The position numbers and the translations under genes were made by a program. A stretch of 13,114 nucleotides of DNA from a virus (taxonomy: Duplodnaviria; Heunggongvirae; Uroviricota; Caudoviricetes), in the IMG/VR virus record IMGVR_UViG_3300030021_000027, one strand, 5' to 3'. Every line of letters starts with the position of its first letter. Position 1 is the first letter of the stretch. Positions 1 to 13,114 of this stretch are shown in pieces. A model generated the notes under the pieces. The model was not told the origin of the DNA and made no database searches. It saw nothing but the letters and a program-made list of their open reading frames with translations.

Positions 1-318
1 TACTGGCGAGAAACACGCCTTTTTCAGATAACTTGATCATTAAATGCTCCAGATATCTGCGCACCGTGAAGTGCGCAAAAAGATAATAAATGGATATACT
101 CTAAATAATTCGAGTTGCAGGAAGGCGACAAGCGAGTGAATCCCCAGGAGCTTACATAAGTAAGTGACTGGGGTGAGCGAACGCAGACGCAGCACATGCA
201 ACTCAAATTATTTAGAGTATATCCATTTATTATCTTTCTGCGCACTTCACGGTGCGCAGATATCTGGAGCATTTGATGATCAAGTTATCTGAAAAAGGCG
301 TGTTTCTCGCCAGTAATA
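1..318. repeat. ERIC/IRU-like element embedded in a long imperfect palindrome (arms about 1-115 and 201-318)
   Basis: Core at 136-179 contains both classic ERIC primer target sequences (GTGAATCCCCAGGAGCTTACAT and AAGTAAGTGACTGGGGTGAGCG). Positions 1-43 are the exact reverse complement of 276-318, and 61-110 is the reverse complement of 206-255 with one mismatch. Confidence 0.8.
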
Positions 319-2678: not shown

Positions 2679-3962
2679 TTACTTCTTCGCCTCTGCAACC
2701 ACTTTACTACCCACGCCGCGGTTATTGTATTCCCACATGCGGTTGTAGTTAGTGTCATTCAGATTGCGCTGTATTTCGTCGTTATCATCTACGCTGCCGG
2801 TATTACCCGCAAACGGACGATTAGAGATCACCGCATCGGCCCACGGTTTAGCCGTGTTAAAACCTTCGTTGATGGCGCTATCACGGATCACCACCTGACC
2901 GTTGGTATTGGCATCAACATCCAGCGAGCGGCCCAGTTGCGCCACACCATCACCGAAAGCATTGAAACGGCTGTTTACGGCGAGGAAACCGTAGTAAATG
3001 TTGGACAGCGTAGCCGGTGCAAACACATACGCTTCTTGCTGAGTACGTGAGTTCACCACGCGGAATTCGGTGTTATCGAACACCACTGCGCCGCGACCAG
3101 AAACGATATCCACATCCCCTTCAATGTAGCTGTTGGTCACCAGCGTACGCGGCTGACGGTTGGTTTCCAGACGGTTCTGCACACCGCTGTTGGTGACAAA
3201 GAAGGTGTTCTGACGACCGAGAATGTTAACGTTGTTAATCTGTACCTGGTCACCATCAGTACGCAGTGCCACCGCCGGATGGTTACCTGCATCTACGCTA
3301 TCGCCCAGCGTGTTTTCGATGGTCAGATTTTGCAGTTGCAGGCCATTGTTTTGTGACCAGAAGACCGCAGAGCAGAGAACACCGATACTGTCGCTGCGTT
3401 TGCTCTGGCAGCTATCGTACATATACCACGCTGGTTTACCTGGCATATATTTGCCGCGCGGGTTGACGTCGTGACGCCAGTCGGCAGGGCTCATGCCCCC
3501 ATCAAGGGAAAGCCCAATCTTCACATCAATCGGTTTTTCACCTGTACCGTACAGAGTAATTCCACCCGGAGCAGCAGGGACATACACCGTTCCCTGATAC
3601 TCACCAGGCATCACGGCAATATACTGGCGCTTGTTAGTGCGCTTGATAATTGCCGCATCTACCGCCGCCTGAATCGTGGTATGCGTTACACCTTGAGTAC
3701 CCGCCGGGCCGACAACAAAGTCAGGTTGCGCAGGCAGGGTAATCGGGGAAGGATTCCACGCTGCAGCACCTGGTGTCAGGGATGCAAAATAGTGTTGAGC
3801 ATCGAAATTCTGCGCTTCTTTTGCCGACAGAATCGGGCGAGAAGAGGTACCAGGCGCGGTTTGATCAGAAGGACGTTGATCGGGTGGTGTTGAGCTACAG
3901 GCGGTCAGCGTCACGCCAAAAGCCAATGCCAGCGCCAGACGGGAAACTGAAAATGTGTTCAC
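2679..3962 (-). CDS. ybhC: Outer-membrane lipoprotein YbhC (pectinesterase-like / acyl-CoA thioesterase family), 427 aa
   Basis: ORF translation begins MNTFSVSRLALALAFGVTLTACSS with a lipobox (LTAC). Recognised as YbhC, the gene that flanks attB-lambda in E. coli. Confidence 0.9.
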   Translation of the reverse strand: MNTFSVSRLALALAFGVTLTACSSTPPDQRPSDQTAPGTSSRPILSAKEAQNFDAQHYFASLTPGAAAWNPSPITLPAQPDFVVGPAGTQGVTHTTIQAAVDAAIIKRTNKRQYIAVMPGEYQGTVYVPAAPGGITLYGTGEKPIDVKIGLSLDGGMSPADWRHDVNPRGKYMPGKPAWYMYDSCQSKRSDSIGVLCSAVFWSQNNGLQLQNLTIENTLGDSVDAGNHPAVALRTDGDQVQINNVNILGRQNTFFVTNSGVQNRLETNRQPRTLVTNSYIEGDVDIVSGRGAVVFDNTEFRVVNSRTQQEAYVFAPATLSNIYYGFLAVNSRFNAFGDGVAQLGRSLDVDANTNGQVVIRDSAINEGFNTAKPWADAVISNRPFAGNTGSVDDNDEIQRNLNDTNYNRMWEYNNRGVGSKVVAEAKK

Positions 3963-3994
3963 AGGTTGCTCCGGGCTATGAAATAGAAAAATGA

Positions 3995-4100
3995 ATCCGT
4001 TGAAGCCTGCTTTTTTATACTAAGTTGGCATTATAAAAAAGCATTGCTTATCAATTTGTTGCAACGAACAGGTCACTATCAGTCAAAATAAAATCATTAT
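3995..4100. other. attL: Phage lambda attL (B-O-P'): bacterial B arm, 15-bp core at 4009-4023, P' arm with Int arm-type sites
   Basis: Core GCTTTTTTATACTAA at 4009-4023 is preceded by attB-type sequence (CCGTTGAAGCCTGC) and followed by lambda P' arm sequence (GTTGGCATTATAAAAAAGCATTGCTTATCAATTTGTTGCAACGAACAGGTCACTATCAGTCAAAATAAAATCATT) running into the int 3' end. Confidence 0.9.
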
Positions 4101-5167
4101 TTGATTTCAATTTTGTCCCACTCCCTGCCTCTGTCATCACGATACTGTGATGCCATGGTGTCCGACTTATGCCCGAGAAGATGTTGAGCAAACTTATCGC
4201 TTATCTGCTTCTCATAGAGTCTTGCAGACAAACTGCGCAACTCGTGAAAGGTAGGCGGATCCCCTTCGAAGGAAAGACCTGATGCTTTTCGTGCGCGCAT
4301 AAAATACCTTGATACTGTGCCGGATGAAAGCGGTTCGCGACGAGTAGATGCAATTATGGTTTCTCCGCCAAGAATCTCTTTGCATTTATCAAGTGTTTCC
4401 TTCATTGATATTCCGAGAGCATCAACATGCAATACTGTTGGGATGGCAATTTTTACGCCTGTTTTGCTTTGCTCGACATAAAGATATCCATCTACGATAT
4501 CAGACCACTTCATTTCGCATAAATCACCAACTCGTTGCCCGGTAACAACAGCCAGTTCCATTGCAAGTCTGAGCCAACATGGTAATGATTCTGCTGCTTG
4601 ATAAATTTTCAGGTATTCGTCAGCCGTAAGTCTTGATCTCCTTACCTCTGATTTTGCTGCGCGAGTGGCAGCGACAGGGTTTGTTGTTATATGGCCTTCA
4701 GCTATTGCCTCTCGGAATGCATCGCTCAGTGTTGATCTGATTAACTTGGCTGACGCCGCCTTGCCCTCGTCTATGTATCCATTGAGCATTGCCGCAATTT
4801 CTTTTGTGGTGATGTCTTCAAGTGGAGCATCAGGCAGACCCCTCCTTATTGCTTTAATTTTGCTCATGTAATTTATGAGTGTCTTCTGCTTGATTCCTCT
4901 GCTGGCCAGGATTTTTTCGTAGCGATCAAGCCATGAATGTAACGTAACGGAATTATCACTGTTGATTCTCGCTGTCAGAGGCTTGTGTTTGTGTCCTGAA
5001 AATAACTCAATGTTGGCCTGTATAGCTTCAGTGATTGCGATTCGCCTGTCTCTGCCTAATCCAAACTCTTTACCCGTCCTTGGGTCCCTGTAGCAGTAAT
5101 ATCCATTGTTTCTTATATAAAGGTTAGGGGGTAAATCCCGGCGCTCATGACTTCGCCTTCTTCCCAT
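4097..5167 (-). CDS. int: Lambda-type tyrosine integrase Int, 356 aa
   Basis: Translation MGRRRSHERRDLPPNLYIRNNGYYCYRDPRTGKEFGLGRDRR... matches phage lambda Int over its full length by my recall. It is adjacent to attL and transcribed toward it, as in a lambda prophage. Confidence 0.97.
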   Translation of the reverse strand: MGRRRSHERRDLPPNLYIRNNGYYCYRDPRTGKEFGLGRDRRIAITEAIQANIELFSGHKHKPLTARINSDNSVTLHSWLDRYEKILASRGIKQKTLINYMSKIKAIRRGLPDAPLEDITTKEIAAMLNGYIDEGKAASAKLIRSTLSDAFREAIAEGHITTNPVAATRAAKSEVRRSRLTADEYLKIYQAAESLPCWLRLAMELAVVTGQRVGDLCEMKWSDIVDGYLYVEQSKTGVKIAIPTVLHVDALGISMKETLDKCKEILGGETIIASTRREPLSSGTVSRYFMRARKASGLSFEGDPPTFHELRSLSARLYEKQISDKFAQHLLGHKSDTMASQYRDDRGREWDKIEIK

Positions 5168-5363
5168 TTCTGATCCTCTTCAAAAGGCTACCTGTTACTG
5201 GTCGATTTAAGTCAACCTTTACCGCTGATTCGTGGAACAGATACTCTCTTCCATCCTTAACCGGAGGAGGGAATATCCTGCACTCGCGTACCCATCGACG
5301 AACTGTTTCAAGGCTTCTTGGGCGTCGCTGGCGTGCGTTCCACTCCTGAAGTGTCAAGTACAT
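5145..5363 (-). CDS. xis: Lambda-type excisionase Xis, 72 aa
   Basis: Translation MYLTLQEWNARQRRPRSLETVRRWVRECRIFPPPVKDGREYLFHESAVKVDL... It overlaps the int start by 23 nt, as in lambda. Confidence 0.95.
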   Translation of the reverse strand: MYLTLQEWNARQRRPRSLETVRRWVRECRIFPPPVKDGREYLFHESAVKVDLNRPVTGSLLKRIRNGKKAKS

Positions 5364-5389
5364 CGCAAAGTCTCCGCAATTACACGCAA

Positions 5390-5412
5390 GAAAAAACCGC
5401 CATCAGGCGGCT
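5390..5412 (-). terminator. Candidate rho-independent terminator (minus strand) at the 3' end of the orf55-like gene
   Basis: Minus-strand GC stem (GCCGCC/GGCGGT, 4-nt loop) followed by a run of six T (plus-strand A-tract 5391-5396). Confidence 0.4.
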
Positions 5413-5570
5413 TGGTGTTCTTTCAGTTCTTCAATTCGAATATTGGTTACGTCTGCATGTGCTATCTGCGCCCATATCATCCAGTGGTTATAACAGTCGT
5501 TGATGTTCTCTGCTTCGATAACCCTGTTGAATGGCTCTCCATTCCATTCACCTGTGACTCGGAAGTGCAT
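5403..5570 (-). CDS. Small lambdoid early-left ORF (55 aa, lambda orf55-like); not in the supplied ORF track
   Basis: My own translation of the minus strand gives MHFRVTGEWNGEPFNRVIEAENINDCYNHWMIWAQIAHADVTNIRIEELKEHQAA. GGAG lies 7 nt upstream of the ATG at 5570. Position immediately upstream of xis matches lambda organisation. Confidence 0.55.
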   Translation of the reverse strand: MHFRVTGEWNGEPFNRVIEAENINDCYNHWMIWAQIAHADVTNIRIEELKEHQAA

Positions 5571-5583
5571 TTATCATCTCCAT

Positions 5584-5607
5584 AAAACAAAACTCGCCGT
5601 AGCGAGT
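5584..5607 (-). terminator. Candidate rho-independent terminator (minus strand) downstream of the 142-aa gene
   Basis: Inverted repeat ACTCGC-CGTA-GCGAGT followed on the minus strand by TTTGTTTT. Confidence 0.45.
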
Positions 5608-5653
5608 TCAGATATAATTTCCACCAAAGGCAGTAGTTGCTTGATGCTAAGAA

Positions 5654-6082
5654 TTATTCAATATCTATTCCTGTAATATCTTTTATCTTTTTCCTTGCAA
5701 AGCCTTTTGCTAGTGATTTTGAAACACTCATAAGTGTACTAATTCCCTCATCCTTAAAGTTTGTTTTTATAGCTTGCCAGACATCCTTTTGACGTAAGTC
5801 AGCAATAAAATCATGCCCTCTTGCTGTCAACCTCAGTGGTACTTCGATCCAACTATATCCAACACCTTCCCCTAACGCTTTGGACAATATATGACCGAAC
5901 CCAGGTTTTCCATCAACCCTGACTATTAATTCGTAGTCACATAATAATCGCATATGGAAAATAAAATCTTGGTCATATCTATTAAAGCCATTATCCTCTA
6001 GTTCACTAAGCATCGTGTCAGGGCCACGAGTTTTTTCGAATGCGATAAGTAGATCTTTTAGATATTGCTGGTCTAATTTCAT
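5654..6082 (-). CDS. Hypothetical protein, 142 aa (phage accessory gene, function unknown)
   Basis: ORF with strong RBS (GGAGG, 5-nt spacer) before the ATG at 6082. AT-rich relative to flanks. No family recognised by eye. Confidence 0.7.
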   Translation of the reverse strand: MKLDQQYLKDLLIAFEKTRGPDTMLSELEDNGFNRYDQDFIFHMRLLCDYELIVRVDGKPGFGHILSKALGEGVGYSWIEVPLRLTARGHDFIADLRQKDVWQAIKTNFKDEGISTLMSVSKSLAKGFARKKIKDITGIDIE

Positions 6083-6110
6083 TGCCGCCTCCGTGACATG
6101 TCACAGAGAT

Positions 6111-6449
6111 TTATATCATTAATTTTGTTTCGTGCCAGCCTTTGGTCACCCAGCATTGTGAGTCACCATTACACGGGCATGAATTAACAGGAACTCTCTC
6201 GCCGCACTTACCGCACCGTTTTCTGCTGATCGATTTTATACGCCAGCGCACACGTGCATCATCCTGGCGGCTCAGTAACGCGATGTACTCACCAAACTCG
6301 CAAGGCGCACGCCTGAAGCGACGCGTGGCACAGTTACGCTCCAGCATTTCAATTTCCTGAGCATCAAGTACAAGCTCCAGCTTACGCATACCGGATGATG
6401 CTTGCTTGGCTCTCTGATCGGCTTTGTGCTCTGTTGCTGATTTAGCCAT
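6111..6449 (-). CDS. Hypothetical protein, 112 aa, with a C-terminal Cys-rich (zinc-ribbon-like) region
   Basis: ORF with AGGAAA RBS about 7 nt upstream of the ATG at 6449. C-terminus reads RKRCGKCGERVPVNSCPCNGDSQCW. Ends 28 bp upstream of the 142-aa gene, suggesting an operon. Confidence 0.65.
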   Translation of the reverse strand: MAKSATEHKADQRAKQASSGMRKLELVLDAQEIEMLERNCATRRFRRAPCEFGEYIALLSRQDDARVRWRIKSISRKRCGKCGERVPVNSCPCNGDSQCWVTKGWHETKLMI

Positions 6450-6645
6450 TCTGCTTTTCCTGCATCAGGAGAAAGACAATCATGGCGGCGCGGATACTTC
6501 CGGTATCTTTTTACGCGATATTCCCCTTCAATGGCACATACAAGAAGAGAGCCATCAACAGGAGTGATTGAGGAATCGACAACCAGCAACGCTTAATTAT
6601 CTATAGTGTCGTATTTGCTTCATAAAATATGGCGAATAACACAAA

Positions 6646-6677
6646 GCCCGCAGCAGCTCATTGTGCGGGCTTTTCTT
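6646..6677. terminator. Candidate bidirectional rho-independent terminator separating the two-gene cassette from the secreted-protein gene
   Basis: 7-bp GC-rich stem (GCCCGCA/TGCGGGC) followed by TTTTCTT on the plus strand and a weaker T-rich tail on the minus strand. Confidence 0.5.
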
Positions 6678-6742
6678 ATACCTACTTCCTAGAGATAATT
6701 CTATGGAGGCATTAAATCAATACTGTCATTGGTAATATCATA

Positions 6743-7357
6743 TTATCTAAAAGTCTTTCCACTTTTAACATCTAGGTATATTCTGTTCGACAACGTCATT
6801 CCTCCGCAATATGTGAAATAGATGTTTTCACCCTTATTGCTTGATGCCATCCACCCTCCGATTTCCTTAAAATCGCTTTCCGTGCAGACCCCTTCATTTA
6901 TTAACTTCCTAGCTGCCGAAGAAAACTCTTTTTTGTATATACGGTAGTCATCAGATCCTTTGATTAAAGTATCATCTCCGCTCGCATTTTCAGCAGGATC
7001 TGATGGCCTTTCACTGCTAAGATCACTAAGTTTAACCCATTCTGAAAACTTGCCATTAACGATTCCATTTTTTCTTGTGCAGGATTTATTACCTTCTTTA
7101 ATATATTCGCTTTCCCCTCCAACACATGAGGCTGAATATGGCTCAGTTATACGAACCCATTCACCTTTTTTTTCTAGAAAATCTACGCCTTCCCTGAAAA
7201 ATAGTTTCCCAGCCACTCCACATTTACTTGAAGGGCAGGTATGTCTTTCCGTTTGATCAACAACAACCCATAGTTTTGATTCATTTTTTGCCATTGCCGA
7301 TGGTATTTGAGATGAGACAATTAACGTAAGCCCTAAAATTAGTATTGATTTTTTCAT
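6743..7357 (-). CDS. Secreted Cys-rich hypothetical protein, 204 aa (signal peptide, probable SPase I site after AMA)
   Basis: N-terminus MKKSILILGLTLIVSSQIPSAMA-KNES is a typical Sec signal peptide with no lipobox. Six Cys in the mature part. AAGGAA RBS before the ATG. Very AT-rich gene with a terminator downstream. Confidence 0.75.
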   Translation of the reverse strand: MKKSILILGLTLIVSSQIPSAMAKNESKLWVVVDQTERHTCPSSKCGVAGKLFFREGVDFLEKKGEWVRITEPYSASCVGGESEYIKEGNKSCTRKNGIVNGKFSEWVKLSDLSSERPSDPAENASGDDTLIKGSDDYRIYKKEFSSAARKLINEGVCTESDFKEIGGWMASSNKGENIYFTYCGGMTLSNRIYLDVKSGKTFR

Positions 7358-7496
7358 TGTAATTTCCTTTTACTTTTTACAAAGCGTTTAATCATGGCTG
7401 ATTATCTCTAAGTGTAGTAACAGCCTTGTGCGAAACATGTTACCAAATCGCCATTTCAGTGTATCCGCAGTTAGGCTGCCACTTCAAGGATTCCTA

Positions 7497-7907
7497 ATTA
7501 CATGGTACGTAAGCGTAAAATCCCGTTGGTTGGCGGGTAATAACTCTGATCAAATCTCCCTTGTCTTTTGCTCTTACGTATGCAGCTCTTGTGTATTCAA
7601 CCCAGGCCTCCAGTTCAGCAATACGCTTACTTCCATCCGAGATAACACCTTCTACTCACGCTGCTCGTTGAGTTTTGATTTTTGCTGTCTCCAGCTCAAC
7701 ACGCAGTTTCCCCACCGTTAGCGCAATATCCTCGTTCTCCTGGTCGCGGCGTTTGATGTATTGCTGGTTTCTTTCCCGTTCATCCAGCAGTGTCAGCACA
7801 ATCGATGGTGTTACCAGCTCATGGAAAAGGTCCGCGTCAAATCCCCAGTTGTCAGGCATTGCCTGCTCTGCCGCTTCACGCAGTGCCTGAGAGTGAATTA
7901 CGCTCAC
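7497..7907 (-). pseudogene. Early-left hypothetical gene interrupted by an in-frame TGA (83 codons, TGA at 7656-7658, then 53 in-frame codons)
   Basis: The 83-aa ORF (7656-7907) ends at TGA. The same frame continues for 53 codons (VEGVISDGSKRIAELEAWVEYTRAAYVRAKDKGDLIRVITRQPTGFYAYVPCN) with no ATG/GTG/TTG start codon of its own, ending at TAG 7494-7496. Confidence 0.5.
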
Positions 7908-8125
7908 TTCGAACCTCTCTGTTTACTGATAAGCTCCAGATCTTCCTGGCAACTTGCACAAGTCCGACAACCCTGAACGGCCAGGCGTCTTAGCTCATCT
8001 ATGGGATCGCCACACTCACAACAATGAGTGGCAGATACAGCCTGGTGGTTCAGGCGGCGCATTTTTATTGCTGTGTTGCGCTGTAATTCTTCAATTTCTG
8101 ATGCTGAATCAATGATGTCTGCCAT
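7904..8125 (-). CDS. TraR/DksA-family C4 zinc-finger protein, 73 aa (lambda Orf73-like)
   Basis: Translation has the CxxC-x17-CxxC motif (CCECGDPIDELRRLAVQGCRTCASC) and the size typical of TraR-like phage proteins. Its stop overlaps the next gene's start (ATGA). Confidence 0.85.
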   Translation of the reverse strand: MADIIDSASEIEELQRNTAIKMRRLNHQAVSATHCCECGDPIDELRRLAVQGCRTCASCQEDLELISKQRGSK

Positions 8126-8178
8126 CTTCCATTAATCCCTGAATTGTTGGTTAATACGCTTGGGGGTAAATGCGAGCA

Positions 8179-8201
8179 ATAAAAAAGGAGCCTGTAGCTC
8201 C
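8179..8201 (-). terminator. Weak candidate terminator (minus strand) between the orf61-like and TraR-like genes
   Basis: Short GGAGC/GCTCC stem followed by a run of six T on the minus strand. Confidence 0.3.
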
Positions 8202-8223
8202 CTGATAATTTTGCTTTTCATGT

Positions 8224-8439
8224 TCATCGTTCCTTAAAGACGCCGTTTAACATGCCGATTGCCAGGCTTAAATGAGTCGGTGTGAATCCCATCAGCGTTA
8301 CCGTTTCGCGGTGCTTCTTCAGTACGCTACGGCAAATGTCATCGACGTTTTTATCCGGAAACTGCTGTCTGGCTTTTTTGATTTCAGAATTAGCCTGACG
8401 GGCAATGCTGCGAAGGGCGTTTTCTTGCTGAGGTGTCAT
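8224..8439 (-). CDS. Lambdoid early-left small ORF (orf61-like), 71 aa from ATG 8439; the track ORF extends to 8505
   Basis: Protein-like translation MTPQQENALRSIARQANSEIKKARQQFPDKNVDDICRSVLKKHRETVTLMGFTPTHLSLAIGMLNGVFKER, directly downstream of orf63 as in lambda. The N-terminal extension from 8505 looks non-coding. Start choice is uncertain. Confidence 0.6.
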   Translation of the reverse strand: MTPQQENALRSIARQANSEIKKARQQFPDKNVDDICRSVLKKHRETVTLMGFTPTHLSLAIGMLNGVFKER

Positions 8440-8515
8440 TGAACAAGCCCCATGTCGGCAAGCATAAGCACACAGAATATGAAGCCCGCTGCCAGAAAAA
8501 TGCATTCAGTGGTTG

Positions 8516-8707
8516 TCATACCTGGTCTCTCTCATCTGCTTCTGCTTTCGCCACCATCATTTCCAGCTTTTGTGAAAGGGATGCGGCTAACGTATGAAAT
8601 TCTTCGTCTGTTTCTACTGGTATTGGCACAAACCTGACTCCAATTTGAGCGAGGCTATGTGCCATCTCGATACACGTTCTTAACTCAACAGGAGATGCTT
8701 TGTGCAT
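8516..8707 (-). CDS. Lambda orf63-like protein, 63 aa
   Basis: Translation MHKASPVELRTCIEMAHSLAQIGVRFVPIPVETDEEFHTLAASLSQKLEMMVAKAEADERDQV, recognised as the lambda early-left orf63 product. G-rich RBS upstream. Confidence 0.85.
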   Translation of the reverse strand: MHKASPVELRTCIEMAHSLAQIGVRFVPIPVETDEEFHTLAASLSQKLEMMVAKAEADERDQV

Positions 8708-8817
8708 ACAGCCCCCCGTTTATTATTTATCTCCTCAGCCAGCCGCTGTGCTTTCAGGGGATTTCTGATAACAGAAAGGCCGGGAAATATCTGGCTGAAA
8801 GAGGGGGTTATTAAGGC

Positions 8818-9180
8818 GTGAATACCTACAGCATCACATTACCCTGGCCTCCGAGCAATAATCGCTATTACCGCCATAATCGCGGGCGCACGCACGTCAG
8901 CGCAGAGGGGCAGGCATACCGCGATAACGTCGCCCGAATCATTAAAAACGCAATGCTGGATATCGGCCTGACTATGCCTGTGAAAATCCGCATTGAGTGC
9001 CACATGCCGGATCGCCGTCGCCGTGACCTGGATAATCTGCAAAAAGCCGCTTTTGACGCACTCACTAAAGCAGGTTTCTGGCTGGATGATGCTCAGGTCG
9101 TTGATTACCGCGTTGTGAAGATGCCTGTTACCAAAGGTGGGAGGCTGGAACTGACCATCACCGAAATGGGGAATGAATGA
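8818..9180 (+). CDS. rusA: Holliday-junction resolvase RusA (crossover junction endodeoxyribonuclease), 120 aa, GTG start
   Basis: Translation [47 protein letters not shown]... is near-identical to E. coli DLP12 RusA by my recall. GAGGGGG RBS upstream. Confidence 0.95.
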
Positions 9181-9317
9181 TGTTTGAGTTTAATATGGCA
9201 GAACTTCTTCGCCACCGCTGGGGGCGTCTGCGCTTATATCGTTTCCCCGGTTCTGTTTTGACCGATTACCGAATACTGAAGAATTACGCCAAAACACTGA
9301 CAGGAGCAGGAGTATGA
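9180..9317 (+). CDS. ylcG: Small nin-region protein YlcG-like, 45 aa; not in the supplied ORF track
   Basis: My own translation gives [45 protein letters not shown]. Its start overlaps the rusA stop (TGATG arrangement), conserved with DLP12 rusA-ylcG. Confidence 0.75.
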   Translation: MFEFNMAELLRHRWGRLRLYRFPGSVLTDYRILKNYAKTLTGAGV

Positions 9318-9402
9318 AGTCAGAGATAACAATCAACTAATACTGTTTTGTTGATTTTTGCTTGTAATTGGCGTTCTGGTCTGAGTTTTGTGGAGTAAGT
9401 TG

Positions 9403-9780
9403 ATGCGTGATATTCAGATGGTTCTTGAGCGTTGGGGAGCGTGGGCGGCTAATAATCATGAAGATGTGACCTGGTCGTCCATTGCCGCCGGTTTTAAGGG
9501 ATTAATTCCTTCAAAAGTAAAATCTCGCCCACAATGTTGTGACGATGACGCGATGATCATTTGCGGGTGCATGGCCCGTCTGAAAAAGAACAACAGCGAT
9601 TTGCATGATTTATTGGTGGACTATTATGTCGGCGGCATGACTTTTATGGCGCTTGCACGTAAGCATGGGCGATCTGATTGTTGGGTTGGCAGGATGCTTC
9701 AGAAAGCTGAGGGCGTAGTGGAGGGTATGCTGATGGTGTTGGATCTCCGATTGGAGATGGATGCTGATTGTTCGAAATAA
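9403..9780 (+). CDS. quuD: Q-type late-gene antiterminator (QuuD / phage 21 Q-like), 125 aa from ATG 9403; the track ORF starts at TTG 9388
   Basis: Translation [67 protein letters not shown]..., recognised as DLP12 QuuD-like. GGAG lies 8 nt upstream of the ATG. Confidence 0.85.
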
Positions 9781-9789
9781 TTAAAGGAA

Positions 9790-9875
9790 AAGTTGCTGTC
9801 TGATTGTCATTAGTCTAACATTTTAAATGTTGGAATCGCAACGTAGTTATTATCATATAACAGCTTGTTTCCTGA
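9790..9875 (+). promoter_or_regulatory. Candidate late promoter pR' with Q-utilisation region (exact -35/-10 not resolved)
   Basis: Immediately downstream of the Q gene. Sigma70-like hexamers present (TTGCTG, 17 nt, TAACAT; alternatively TTGGAA ... TATCAT). 15-bp inverted repeat AACATTTTAAATGTT. Followed by a strong terminator, as for lambdoid pR'-tR'. Confidence 0.4.
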
Positions 9876-9880
9876 TTTAG

Positions 9881-9907
9881 CCAGCCTCCCCAAAGGCTGG
9901 TTTTTTT
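9881..9907 (+). terminator. Strong rho-independent terminator (tR'-like) downstream of the Q gene
   Basis: CCAGCCT-CCCCAA-AGGCTGG perfect 7-bp stem followed by a run of seven T. Confidence 0.8.
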
Positions 9908-9935
9908 CTAATAAGTATTATTTCGGGTAGGGATT

Positions 9936-10460
9936 TTATTGTTTAACCCATAATAATTCATTGACATTGAATCCCAACTTTTGAGCGGTTCGCACATAGT
10001 CTGCTTTTACTTTATCTGGAATAGTTGGGGTCCTTGCCAGAATCCATAGGTATTCTCTGTTCGGACCACTGACAAGAGCATACTTATACTCATCATCCAG
10101 TTTGATTACATTATAGCCACCATAGAAGGGGCCAAAAAACGAAACCTTCAATGCTGCAGTTTTAGTATCTCCAGTAAAGTATGCTTTACCTTCGCTCTCG
10201 CTCCATTTATTTTTCGTTGGATCGTATCCACGGTTAAGTACACGAATCCCTCCGTCGTTCCGTTTTCCATAAGTAGCGCTGACCTGTTCCAGACCACGTT
10301 CGAACCGGTTCTCGAGGCGAGCTATTTCATACCATTTTCCGAGGTAGCGGTTGGCGTCAAAATTTGTAATCGGCTGCACACCTTTAGGTGGTGTCGGGGC
10401 CTTACATGCTATAAGAGTGAAAGAGAGTGCAATGCCAGTCAACACAGGCCATAACTTCAT
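9936..10460 (-). CDS. Bacterial lipocalin Blc-like outer-membrane lipoprotein, 174 aa
   Basis: Lipoprotein signal MKLWPVLTGIALSFTLIAC (lipobox LIAC). Mature region (FDANRYLGKWYEIARLENRFERGLEQVSATY...KAYFTG...ALKVSFFGPFYGGYNVI...EYLWILARTP) is clearly homologous to E. coli Blc but divergent. Confidence 0.85.
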   Translation of the reverse strand: MKLWPVLTGIALSFTLIACKAPTPPKGVQPITNFDANRYLGKWYEIARLENRFERGLEQVSATYGKRNDGGIRVLNRGYDPTKNKWSESEGKAYFTGDTKTAALKVSFFGPFYGGYNVIKLDDEYKYALVSGPNREYLWILARTPTIPDKVKADYVRTAQKLGFNVNELLWVKQ

Positions 10461-10652
10461 AATAAATCCTGTACTTTTGATAGTTGAGAGTAAGTATGAA
10501 AGATAGATGATTACGACCGATCACTTAAAGAACTTTCATACTATATTAGGAATAGTCCATAACAGAAAAATTGTCAGTGATGACGCCAGAAAGGCAATTT
10601 ATTCCGTGCACTACACAGTTTATGTGTTAATGAATTAGTCAAGGGGGAGAAT

Positions 10653-11612
10653 ATGATAAAAAAACCTGTGATTGGAATCAGCGGTTGTTTGGCCGGTTCT
10701 GCTGTTCGTTTTGATGGTGGTCACAAAAGAGCTGACTTTTTAATGGACAAATTAGTGGAATGGGTAACATTCAGACCAGTATGTCCGGAAATGGCTATAG
10801 GGCTGCCAGTTCCGCGTCCTGCTCTACGTCTTGTGCGCTCGACGCAAGGAAATATACGGATGTGTTTCAGCCACGACCAGAATGAGGATGTGACAGAGAG
10901 AATGACAGAGTTTAGTCGTTCTTATATGGACAAATTAAAGGATGTATCGGGGTTTGTGGTTTGTGCTAAATCTCCCAGCTGTGGCATGGAGCGCGTGCGT
11001 GTCTATGATGAAAATGGTAATCGAGGTCGTAAAGATGGAGTGGGACTATTTACGAGCACTTTGATGGAAAAGTTTTCCTGGCTACCGGTTGAAGAGGATG
11101 GGCGATTACATGATCCAGTGCTTCGTGAGAATTTTGTTGAAAGAGTTTTTGCTTTGCATGAGCTCAATCACCTTTACAAGGAGAAATTATCAAGAAGAGA
11201 GTTATTAGCTTTTCATAGTCGTTATAAGCTTCAGTTGTTGGCGCATAGTCAGGCAGGCTATAAAGATATGGGACCATTTGTGGCTGCAATACACGAGTGG
11301 GCGGACCTTGAATCATACTTTGAGGTGTATCGTGATAAGCTGATGGCGATTCTCAGAAAACCTGCATCACGTAAAAATCACACGAATGTGCTGATGCATA
11401 TACAGGGGTATTTTAGTAACTACTTAAGTACACGCCAGCGTAAAGAGTTGAGCGAGGTTATACTTAACTATCGTTCTGGCACATTACCTCTTCTTGCGCC
11501 GTTGACTCTGCTGAAGCATTATCTGGGTGAGTATCCTAATGATTACTTGCTTACACAGAATTACTTCGATCCCTATCCGGACGAACTGGCTCTAAGACTG
11601 ATGGTAAATTAA
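10653..11612 (+). CDS. DUF523 (TudS-like thiouracil desulfidase fold) / DUF1722 (YbgA-like) fusion protein, 319 aa
   Basis: N-terminus MIKKPVIGISGCLAGSAVRFDGGHKR with conserved Cys residues typical of DUF523. The C-terminal half resembles YbgA-type DUF1722. Strong RBS AAGGGGGAG. Family assignment is from memory, not a search. Confidence 0.8.
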   Translation: MIKKPVIGISGCLAGSAVRFDGGHKRADFLMDKLVEWVTFRPVCPEMAIGLPVPRPALRLVRSTQGNIRMCFSHDQNEDVTERMTEFSRSYMDKLKDVSGFVVCAKSPSCGMERVRVYDENGNRGRKDGVGLFTSTLMEKFSWLPVEEDGRLHDPVLRENFVERVFALHELNHLYKEKLSRRELLAFHSRYKLQLLAHSQAGYKDMGPFVAAIHEWADLESYFEVYRDKLMAILRKPASRKNHTNVLMHIQGYFSNYLSTRQRKELSEVILNYRSGTLPLLAPLTLLKHYLGEYPNDYLLTQNYFDPYPDELALRLMVN

Positions 11613-11963
11613 TTGTATGCGATATCATCCAAAAGGATGAGTTCCTGCATGCAGGATATTTACAATCGTAAAAACTACACTATGATACCCAGAGTGTCAG
11701 TTTGTATAAAAACTCTGTTTACGCTGAAGAAACAATTGAGATGCAACTTAAAGTTGGTAAACATGCCAGTCAAAATATATAATATTATGATTCCACGCAG
11801 CTATATATAATATAACGGATTGGTTTAATAATTTGTCTTTGTGAGTTAAATACATAATTTTATACTTGTGATGCAATGAAATTTTCCTTATTGTTGAACT
11901 GGCGAATATTGATTTTCCACCTATACTTACCTGGTGTAACCCCAATGATATCAGGTGGATAAT

Positions 11964-12695
11964 ATGCCATACATATGTTCTATCATTTTGGTGTTGAACT
12001 CGTTTGATGTCCGAATTGGTAAAGAAGATATTTTGTTTAAAAAAGGAAGTGCTGTTCTCATTGATTACAATTTAAAAGATTTTTTTTCATCAAATATAGA
12101 TCATGTAATGATCGTAGATGTTGAAGAGAAAACAGTTAATGATTTCTTTAAAAGCAACACACTCTCACCTTTTTCTGTAAGAAGGTTTTATCCGGCATAC
12201 TTGATGGTGGAATGTGAAGATTTTTCATTGTTAAAGAACTTGATTGCATGCTTGAATTGTGATGGCAGAACTGTGGATTTTGTTAGAAATCAAATATCAC
12301 TTGCATGTCTTGCTATCTTATCTTCAGAGAAAATAGTGCAAAGTTTTTTATTTGGATGTCTTAATAGTTTAGGAAGTAAAGTTAAGGCTATTATTCACAC
12401 GGATATATCTGCAGCATGGAGACTTTGTGATATATCTTCAAGACTGTATCTGAGTGAAAGTCTGTTAAAAAGAAAATTAAAGCACGAAGGCTTATCATTT
12501 AGTAAGTTAATTCTTGAAGAGCGAATGGTGATGGCGGAAAGGTTATTAAGCTACAATTTATATTCTGTTGGAAAAGTTGCTGAGATATGCGGTTATGAAA
12601 ACACGTCATATTTTGTAAGTGTTTTCAGAAGGTATTTTGGTGTTCCTCCCCATCAATATTCATCAAGATTTTTTTTAGAAAAAGACATGATGTAA
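11964..12695 (+). CDS. AraC-family transcriptional regulator, AppY/EnvY-like, about 243 aa (the track ORF starts at GTG 11955)
   Basis: N-terminus MPYICSIILVLNSFDV resembles AppY (MDYVCSVVFICQSFDL). C-terminal AraC-type helix-turn-helix (ICGYENTSYFVSVFRRYFGVPPHQY). AGGTGG RBS upstream. Preceded by a 340-bp extremely AT-rich region. Confidence 0.85.
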   Translation: MPYICSIILVLNSFDVRIGKEDILFKKGSAVLIDYNLKDFFSSNIDHVMIVDVEEKTVNDFFKSNTLSPFSVRRFYPAYLMVECEDFSLLKNLIACLNCDGRTVDFVRNQISLACLAILSSEKIVQSFLFGCLNSLGSKVKAIIHTDISAAWRLCDISSRLYLSESLLKRKLKHEGLSFSKLILEERMVMAERLLSYNLYSVGKVAEICGYENTSYFVSVFRRYFGVPPHQYSSRFFLEKDMM

Positions 12696-12882
12696 CGTGA
12701 TGCGTTTTAATGATTTTGTAATTTTCGTATTTGATAATTGTATGATGCTTTCAGCTACGCCAGAATAATCGCGGCGTTTTTCTTTTTGAATAGATGTTCA
12801 AGCCTTACGCTAATGTAACTTCTATACCTTTCCTCTTCGTTCCGAACCGTGTACACCATCCGTTATTTGCGGAGGTGAGGCT

Positions 12883-13098
12883 ATGAAATCCATGGATAAG
12901 TTAACAACGGGCATTGCCTACGGCACCTCCGCAGGCAGTGCTGGCTACTGGTTTTTACAGTTGCTCGATAAAGTCACGCCCTCACAGTGGGCAGCAATAG
13001 GTGTGCTGGGTAGCTTGGTATTTGGCCTGCTGACGTACCTGACAAACCTTTATTTCAAGATTAAAGAAGATAAGCGCAAGGCTGCGAGAGGTGAATAA
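12883..13098 (+). CDS. essD: Phage-21-type class II holin (pinholin S21 / EssD-like) with dual-start motif, 71 aa
   Basis: Translation [71 protein letters not shown]. Met1 and Met4 are separated by Lys-Ser (antiholin/holin dual start). GGAGG RBS. Confidence 0.9.
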
Positions 13099-13114
13099 TG
13101 CCTCCATCATTACG
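13098..13114 (+). CDS. rrrD: 5' end of endolysin gene (SAR-endolysin R21 / RrrD-like), truncated by the window edge
   Basis: ATG overlaps the holin stop (TAATG). The first codons MPPSL match the N-terminus of phage 21 / DLP12 lysozyme. Only 17 nt are visible. Confidence 0.5.

Follow-up and report, generated by a model that had tools for sequence, protein, structure and literature searches.

An internal deletion joint between orf60a and ybcO-rusA in a defective prophage at the lambda attachment site, with breakpoints that recur at TA in related lambdoid prophages

The stretch of DNA analysed here (the window, 13,114 nucleotides in all) starts in the chromosomal genes ybhJ and ybhC and runs into a prophage at the lambda attachment site, where identity to lambda and to phage Chlobot on the phage side begins at the attachment core (4009-4023). 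Its features are the following.

252-2537, ybhJ, chromosomal
2679-3962, minus strand, ybhC, chromosomal
4009-4023, plus strand, attL core GCTTTTTTATACTAA (15 bp), the exact lambda att core; the prophage sits at lambda attB between ybhC and ybhB
4097-5167, minus strand, int of lambda type (ORF of 356 aa, annotated as integrase in identical genomes)
5145-5363, minus strand, xis of lambda type (ORF of 72 aa, annotated as excisionase in identical genomes)
8516-8707, minus strand, intact orf63 (DUF1382; Pfam PF07131, 109.6 bits, profile positions 1-60 of 60)
8680-8789, minus strand, remnant of orf60a (DUF1317; Pfam PF07026, profile positions 25-60 of 60), the C-terminal 36 codons, with the first 24 codons gone
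8777-8789, minus strand, surviving half of a terminator-like hairpin that in intact phages reads AGGCUGGGUAUUUCCCGGCCU and then UUUCUGUU on the minus strand
8788-8789, deletion joint, TA, the sole bases common to both parents (three-way alignment of the window, Chlobot and FG92-1; an 80-bp probe splits at 40/41)
about 8790-8821, plus strand, 3' end of ybcO (DUF1364; about 30 bp), colinear with DUF1364-rusA in FG92-1 and in thousands of genomes
8818-9180, plus strand, intact Holliday-junction resolvase gene rusA (PF05866, 83.4 bits; 120 aa, GTG start)
9177-9317, plus strand, ylcG (ORF list; annotation of matching genomes)
9403-9780 as annotated (ORF from 9388), plus strand, antiterminator gene Q (Pfam PF06530, 173 bits)

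Over int and xis (4097-5363) the window is 98.9% identical to lambda, and beyond these two genes lies the exo-xis-region arm. The window equals the bacterial genome EC20-4B-2 except for one SNP (9693) and the first 196 bases, and its positions 4000-13114 equal PK8566 apart from an additional IS2 in the latter; in EC20-4B-2 a matching attR core lies 18.9 kb downstream of attL. Between Q and the holin gene (9936-12695), a position occupied by nmpC/ompC or stx in other lambdoid phages, the window carries as cargo genes for a Blc-like lipocalin (minus strand), a YbgA-type DUF523/DUF1722 protein (2-thiouracil desulfurase family) and an AraC-type regulator; the IS2 of PK8566 sits between the lipocalin and YbgA-type genes. 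In the left arm, two conserved minus-strand ORFs, at 6111-6449 (112 aa, Cys-rich) and 6743-7357 (204 aa, with a signal peptide), have no Pfam match, and annotated relatives show a pseudogene fragment of a UmuD-like 'DNA repair protein' between them. At the chromosomal end, positions 1-119 are the inverted complement (97%) of 197-315, flanking a 77-nt ERIC/IRU-like core, and mirror-image spurious ORFs result from these inverted arms; in EC20-4B-2, the place of window 1-196 is taken by unrelated sequence from between ybhI and ybhJ, and the core has the opposite orientation; the arrangement at 1-315 looks like a contig-end fold-back or a flipped ERIC element. An Rfam scan of the window gave no matches.

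The initial annotation had placed an internal deletion between orf63 and rusA, describing the two as abutting genes with starts about 110 bp apart on opposite strands. The spacing and orientation hold, with orf63 on the minus strand (8516-8707) and rusA on the plus strand (8818-9180); a deletion joint does lie between them, but the genes actually joined are orf60a and ybcO, fragments of which fill the interval. The orf60a remnant overlaps orf63 and is a pseudogene, called 'incomplete, missing N-terminus' by PGAP in matching genomes; the 3' 60% of the gene survives rather than a complete 60-residue domain with its own start codon. On the other side, the 3' end of ybcO holds the rusA Shine-Dalgarno sequence AAAGAGGGGG, and the ybcO stop codon overlaps the rusA start. 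Alignment with lambda, Chlobot and FG92-1 places the joint at 8788-8789: identity to the early-left arm of lambda and Chlobot ends at 8789 (lambda coordinate 31278), homology to the ybcO-rusA(-ylcG-Q) context begins at 8788, and the joint reads GGGAAATATCTGGC. The left breakpoint falls at the loop of the terminator-like hairpin, probably lambda tL3, which in intact Chlobot folds with z = -4.0 under RNA parameters and with a mildly significant z = -1.9 under DNA parameters. The lambda record has a misc_recomb feature at 31266/7 that carries no note text. Of 5,426 complete E. coli genomes, just 2 contain the whole of an 80-bp probe over the joint, while either half alone matches thousands, so chance does not account for the joint. 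A search of 50,697 phage genomes gave no record that spans it (none covers 80% of the query).

What lay between the two breakpoints can be read from Chlobot (PP925838), an isolated functional phage with a complete 46.5-kb genome. Throughout the 4,781 bp of the left arm (4009-8789) the window and Chlobot agree at every base (100.000% identity); the right arm, which starts at 8788, is colinear with FG92-1 over ybcO'-rusA-ylcG-Q. Chlobot has about 9.85 kb and 24 annotated CDS in this interval, in line with the earlier estimate of roughly 10 kb: past the left breakpoint come the rest of orf60a, exo, bet, gam, kil, ral, sieB, N, the immunity region, O and P, followed by ren, ninB, a methyltransferase gene, ninE, ninX and the ybcO remnant, and then the right breakpoint. 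Neither exo, bet, gam, N, the repressor gene, O nor P is present in any orientation in the full 18.9-kb attL-attR prophage of EC20-4B-2, and because the missing modules are nowhere else in that prophage the joint marks a deletion and not a rearrangement with inverted segment order. The Chlobot comparison and the complete EC20-4B-2 prophage thus bear out the supposed loss of recombination, immunity and replication modules, from exo/bet/gam and kil/cIII through N and the immunity region to O/P, and most nin genes went with them. That the prophage is defective, as had been presumed, is confirmed, and the damage exceeds what was assumed: in matching genomes Rz is truncated, terminase is truncated and inverted, the head and tail genes are gone, and of that part only tail-fibre remnants and an invertase fragment are left. 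The element has the make-up of a defective lambdoid prophage, with attL/attR and int/xis present and the immunity and early promoters, N, O/P, ori and virion genes absent.

Two further rearrangements lie outside the window, in the right part of these prophages. In EC20-4B-2 (L004 24740-24750), Rz is fused to an inverted, 3'-truncated gene for the terminase large subunit (lambda A, near 2224), an inversion-type joint with a 4-bp TTAC microhomology that includes TA. A tail-fibre-assembly gene pair by the invertase remnant has opposite order and orientation in PK8566 (L001 31336-32425) and EC20-4B-2 (L004 29357-30446), as if an invertible segment had switched between near-identical prophages.

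No undeleted ancestor with both arms identical to those of the window's prophage was found, and the history may have had two steps, for example a second deletion in an FG92-1-like intermediate. Judged by the left arm, which is base for base that of a phage that still grows, the deletion is a very recent event, and this identity implies either a very recent common origin or an ongoing exchange between free phage and remnant. Chlobot comes from puddle mud in the USA, and the bacterial genomes that match are from Pakistan and Viet Nam.

The resolvase gene beside the joint is intact. Its Pfam match covers profile positions 1-123 of 124 with 83.4 bits against a cutoff of 22.8, and the protein is identical to K-12 RusA (PDB 1Q8R) at 119 of 120 residues; the sole change is A52T, and D70, D72 and D91, the catalytic residues Asp70, Asp72 and Asp91 (PMC1636454), are kept. 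The K-12 gene is quiescent unless IS2 or IS10 inserts upstream (PMC1636454), in agreement with the statement of the initial annotation that rusA is silent in DLP12 unless so activated. Its further suggestion, that the new upstream context could alter rusA expression, finds no support here: the new DNA upstream of rusA is the antisense strand of orf60a/orf63, pR is deleted, and a sigma-70 consensus scan of the plus strand over 5400-8817, crude enough to leave room for weak or non-sigma-70 transcription into rusA, returned no promoter-like site close upstream, the nearest sigma-70-like plus-strand match lying inside rusA. Since read-through from pR, the only known source of transcription, has been lost, rusA is most likely silent. 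By leaving this resolvase gene intact with just 30 bp of its native upstream sequence, the joint offers a natural test of the requirements for rusA expression.

The right breakpoint of this deletion belongs to a wider pattern: related prophages have many other central deletions, and the ends of these do not fall at scattered places. Pattern scans with one side of the joint fixed, which speak to recurrence and not to frequency, turned up two sites at which related prophages repeatedly break. The first, ...GGTTA/TCTGGCTGAAAG (the slash marks the break), lies 30 bp before rusA and is the window's right breakpoint; it has at least eight left partners, reflecting independent deletions, of which six of eight were mapped on lambda, at 29235, 30812, 31146 (strain A10, the icd site), 31278 (the window), 32927 (gam) and 38746 (O). 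The second lies in orf60a at lambda ~31323 and reads ...GCGCCTA/CCCGG (in longer form ...GAAAGTGATCGCGCCTA/CCCGG); at least 17 distinct right partners are known for it, a number reached through pattern scans of IMG/VR and metagenome contigs. The leftward arm ends at this site to the nucleotide in FG92-1, ET776, BKQWHE, LR-64-1 and IAL7250, and is joined there to P', to a nuclease-gene fragment, to the inside of rusA, to ybcN' (at the argU/DLP12 site) and to ren', respectively. The orf60a site is also used from the other side, in the DLP12 prophage of K-12 (GTGAGGTA/CCCGGATATT) and in one further class. A scan of one genome per species gave two matches only, which we took as chance, as we did the IMG/VR match L022. 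Lambda itself has hot spots of illegitimate recombination (formation of lambda-bio/Spi- phages, gyrase-mediated joints), which like the present sites produce recurrent non-homologous joints at preferred places in the early region and which show homologies of 0-13 bp or gyrase consensus sites. In the literature that we covered, an incomplete set with older work on lambda illegitimate recombination mostly outside it, no deletion hot spot in orf60a or upstream of rusA is described.

In N18-04097 (L013 ~3240-5100), an IS100 interrupts, 7 bp rightward of the orf60a hot spot (...GCGCCTACCCGGAT/TGTCACG...), an otherwise intact orf60a-exo-bet arm at the argU site. A left-arm sequence of ~50 bp (window 6458-6507; Chlobot, L002 19059-19108) is repeated in inverted orientation, at 92%, in the nin region of intact relatives (Chlobot 30999-31048); the deletion in 52F4 ends exactly at the nin copy, and the window keeps the left copy alone.

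The joints share not only sites but also the dinucleotide at which they cross: TA in 22 of the 24 joints with both parents known. For the orf60a site, the parent of the variable side reads TA just before the break in all 11 recoverable right partners (p ~5e-15 from the local TA dinucleotide frequency) and in both left partners (2/2), and TA stands at the break in all six known left parents of the rusA-proximal site. Further TA joints are exoD to peaD in K-12, that of 74-2 (TTA) and the inverted Rz' to terminase' joint of the window's prophage (TTAC). Two joints do not cross at TA: that of 52F4, which has no microhomology and whose right end begins TACC, and an internal left-arm deletion in FG92-1, at TT. 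The flanks of the TA also show a bias. Of 13 partners of the orf60a site, 12 carry G at -4, the fourth base ahead of the break, and they carry it on the same strand whichever side of the site they come from; among the right partners alone, G at -4 is present in 10 of 11, where 0.35 is the background (p = 2e-4), and GGTA in 6 of 11, where the background is 0.095 (p = 2e-4). The orf60a site itself, C-C-TA-C-C, fits a loose palindrome G-N-TA-N-C on one side only, and its partners supply the other half; the rusA-proximal site, G-T-TA-T-C, fits on both sides, and its partners carry no extra motif. This is the distribution that would be expected of a symmetric recognition in which each reaction requires two good half-sites. 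Within the same incomplete coverage, the literature yielded no description of a strict TA crossover flanked by GNTA/TANC. The recurrent breakpoints are a real and statistically strong pattern.

We consider it very probable that the joint in the window is the scar of one illegitimate (non-homologous) deletion of ~9.85 kb inside an integrated prophage at lambda attB. It probably reflects not random slippage but a sequence-preferring process, to which the recurrent TA breakpoints point. Random slippage is disfavoured because the right end is precise and recurrent and because TA is the crossover in almost every comparable joint of the prophage family. The left break lies inside orf60a (lambda 31278), where the terminator-like hairpin has its loop; the right break lies 30 bp ahead of the rusA start codon, within the 3' end of ybcO; and the two ends were joined at the TA common to both. 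The deletion removed pL, pR, ori-lambda and all genes from exo to ybcO, leaving an element no longer able to express early genes, to replicate or to be induced. We infer a process of the cut-and-join or recombinase-like type that prefers certain sequences and crosses over at 2 bp. Several familiar routes do not fit. An IS-mediated adjacent deletion that retains the IS at the joint is not what is seen: no recombinase, transposase or IS remnant is present there, and in the three-way alignment the parents abut with a 2-bp overlap and no extra bases, with no insertion sequence between them. An Int-mediated deletion between att and a secondary att site is discounted by the intact attL 4.8 kb away and by the joint sequence GGGAAATATCTGGC, which is unlike GCTTTTTTATACTAA; homologous recombination between repeats would need at least ~20 bp at both sites, and TA alone is common to the parents.

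A broader proposal, which we offer tentatively and regard as possible but short of probable, is that lambdoid E. coli prophages have repeatedly been disarmed by sequence-preferring recombination or cut-and-join with a TA crossover, not by random deletion, at two strong sites, GCGCC-TA-CCCGG in orf60a and CAGGT-TA-TCTGG 30 bp before rusA, both related to the loose palindrome G-N-TA-N-C, with the window's joint among the products of the rusA-proximal one. The candidate agents would be a phage- or host-encoded recombinase or nuclease with a 2-bp stagger (serine-recombinase-like) or a junction resolvase. At crossovers, RusA cuts on the 5' side of CC (PMC1636454), and 11 of 19 sites read TA/CC; no plausible four-way intermediate could be drawn for cutting by a junction resolvase. 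Other candidates were set aside. Slippage driven by hairpins at the hot spots is not favoured by folds under DNA parameters, which are not significant at either (z -0.9 to +1.0); under RNA parameters the region over the terminator-like hairpin and the orf60a site looked structured. The two ends of the deleted DNA show inverted complementarity to each other with partners of the orf60a site, but not where that site is used from the other side and not with the rusA-proximal partners. The lambda hot spot of IS30, at 33244-33498, is an unrelated sequence. Chi-like GCTGG was seen by eye near several breaks, at inconsistent spacing. The orf60a hot spot (lambda 31323-31335; L008 4324-4336) contains CCCGGATATT, the minimal recognition half-site of Bacillus cereus GajA, of the Gabija system (PMC8136825), whose published double-strand site in lambda lies within 1985-2939 (PMC8136825). 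This match is probably coincidental: the partner sites do not fit 5'-TNNNC/GGGNNA-3', the joint lies 3 nt off the predicted nick, and the window's own joint is without the motif.

The main rival to a sequence-preferring TA crossover, unlikely in our judgement, is that an IS once sat at the recurrent site or sites, for instance upstream of rusA, and that copy-out excision of the transposase/IEE type or sloppy strand transfer removed it together with flanking DNA, leaving a scarless joint at 2-4 bp of microhomology. A constant end combined with a varied set of partners is what IS-adjacent deletion classically produces, and it is documented that IS3- and IS30-family elements can be lost without a scar, at microhomologies of 2-4 bp, and that larger deletions of flanking DNA occur (bioRxiv 10.1101/2023.06.07.543989). 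Insertions of IS2 and IS10 upstream of rusA are known in K-12 (PMC1636454), the prophage lineage is rich in IS1, IS2, IS3, IS100 and ISKpn26, and in N18-04097 an IS100 lies 7 bp from the orf60a hot spot. However, no IS sits exactly at either hot spot among the genomes examined, the lambda hot spot of IS30 lies elsewhere (33244-33498) and has a different sequence, and the former presence of an IS would leave unexplained both the TA crossover in nearly every case and the same-strand G at -4 in orf60a-site partners on both sides.

Random replication slippage at microhomology, or end joining, with recurrence arising from selection against lethal prophage genes, we consider improbable. Strong selection against lambda kil, N, O and P is to be expected, the homology at the joint is just 2 bp, the left break lies in a hairpin loop, and two joints of the family do not cross at TA, all of which would suit such a process. 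But selection cannot fix endpoints to the nucleotide, and exact breakpoints are found with 8 and with 17+2 independent partners; TA occurs at 22 of 24 crossovers, against the 1 in 16 expected for a random dinucleotide; and neither hot spot shows significant DNA secondary structure. Very improbable indeed is a rearrangement or natural mosaic joint, with the modules moved or inverted or with a viable phage that carries orf60a beside rusA: lambdoid genomes are mosaic and the same prophage contains the inverted Rz' to terminase' segment, but the full 18.9-kb attL-attR prophage lacks exo, bet, gam, N, the repressor gene, O and P, the genes at the joint are both truncated and face apart, and the joint is spanned by 0 of the 50,697 phage genome records.

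The closest known counterpart is DLP12 of E. coli K-12, like the window's prophage a lambdoid remnant in which an internal deletion joined the leftward to the rightward arm with loss of the segment from N through immunity to O, and in which rusA, ylcG, Q and the lysis genes are kept, the two RusA proteins being one residue apart. Both joints of DLP12 (including exoD to peaD) cross at TA, and one of them uses the orf60a site. DLP12 differs in its integrase and in its location, at argU rather than lambda attB; ahead of rusA it retains P', ren, ybcN, ninE and ybcO, compared with 30 bp in the window's prophage; and its cargo between Q and holin is nmpC, in place of the lipocalin, ybgA and AraC-type genes. 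Sister deletions within the same attB lineage (FG92-1, BKQWHE, 74-2, 63-2 and others) share the int-xis-exo/xis and Q-lipocalin-ybgA-AraC-essD arms at 99-100% identity, and all of these sister prophages are centrally deleted, with breakpoints of their own (orf60a to P', orf60a to the inside of rusA, the 204-aa ORF to ninX, and IS-mediated). In the K-12 alleles rus-1 and rus-2 (IS2/IS10), as in the window, the DNA directly upstream of rusA has been replaced (PMC1636454); there the IS provides an outward promoter, whereas in the window the replacement is antisense orf60a/orf63 DNA with no IS and, by the consensus scan, no predicted promoter.

As a deletion scar, the joint is ordinary prophage decay, one more case of lambdoid prophages becoming permanently grounded; what takes the finding beyond the routine is the recurrence of TA-anchored breakpoints. 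Should these be the work of a defined activity, the inactivation of prophages in E. coli would be partly directed, with predictable products, and this would account for the likeness among cryptic prophages such as DLP12.
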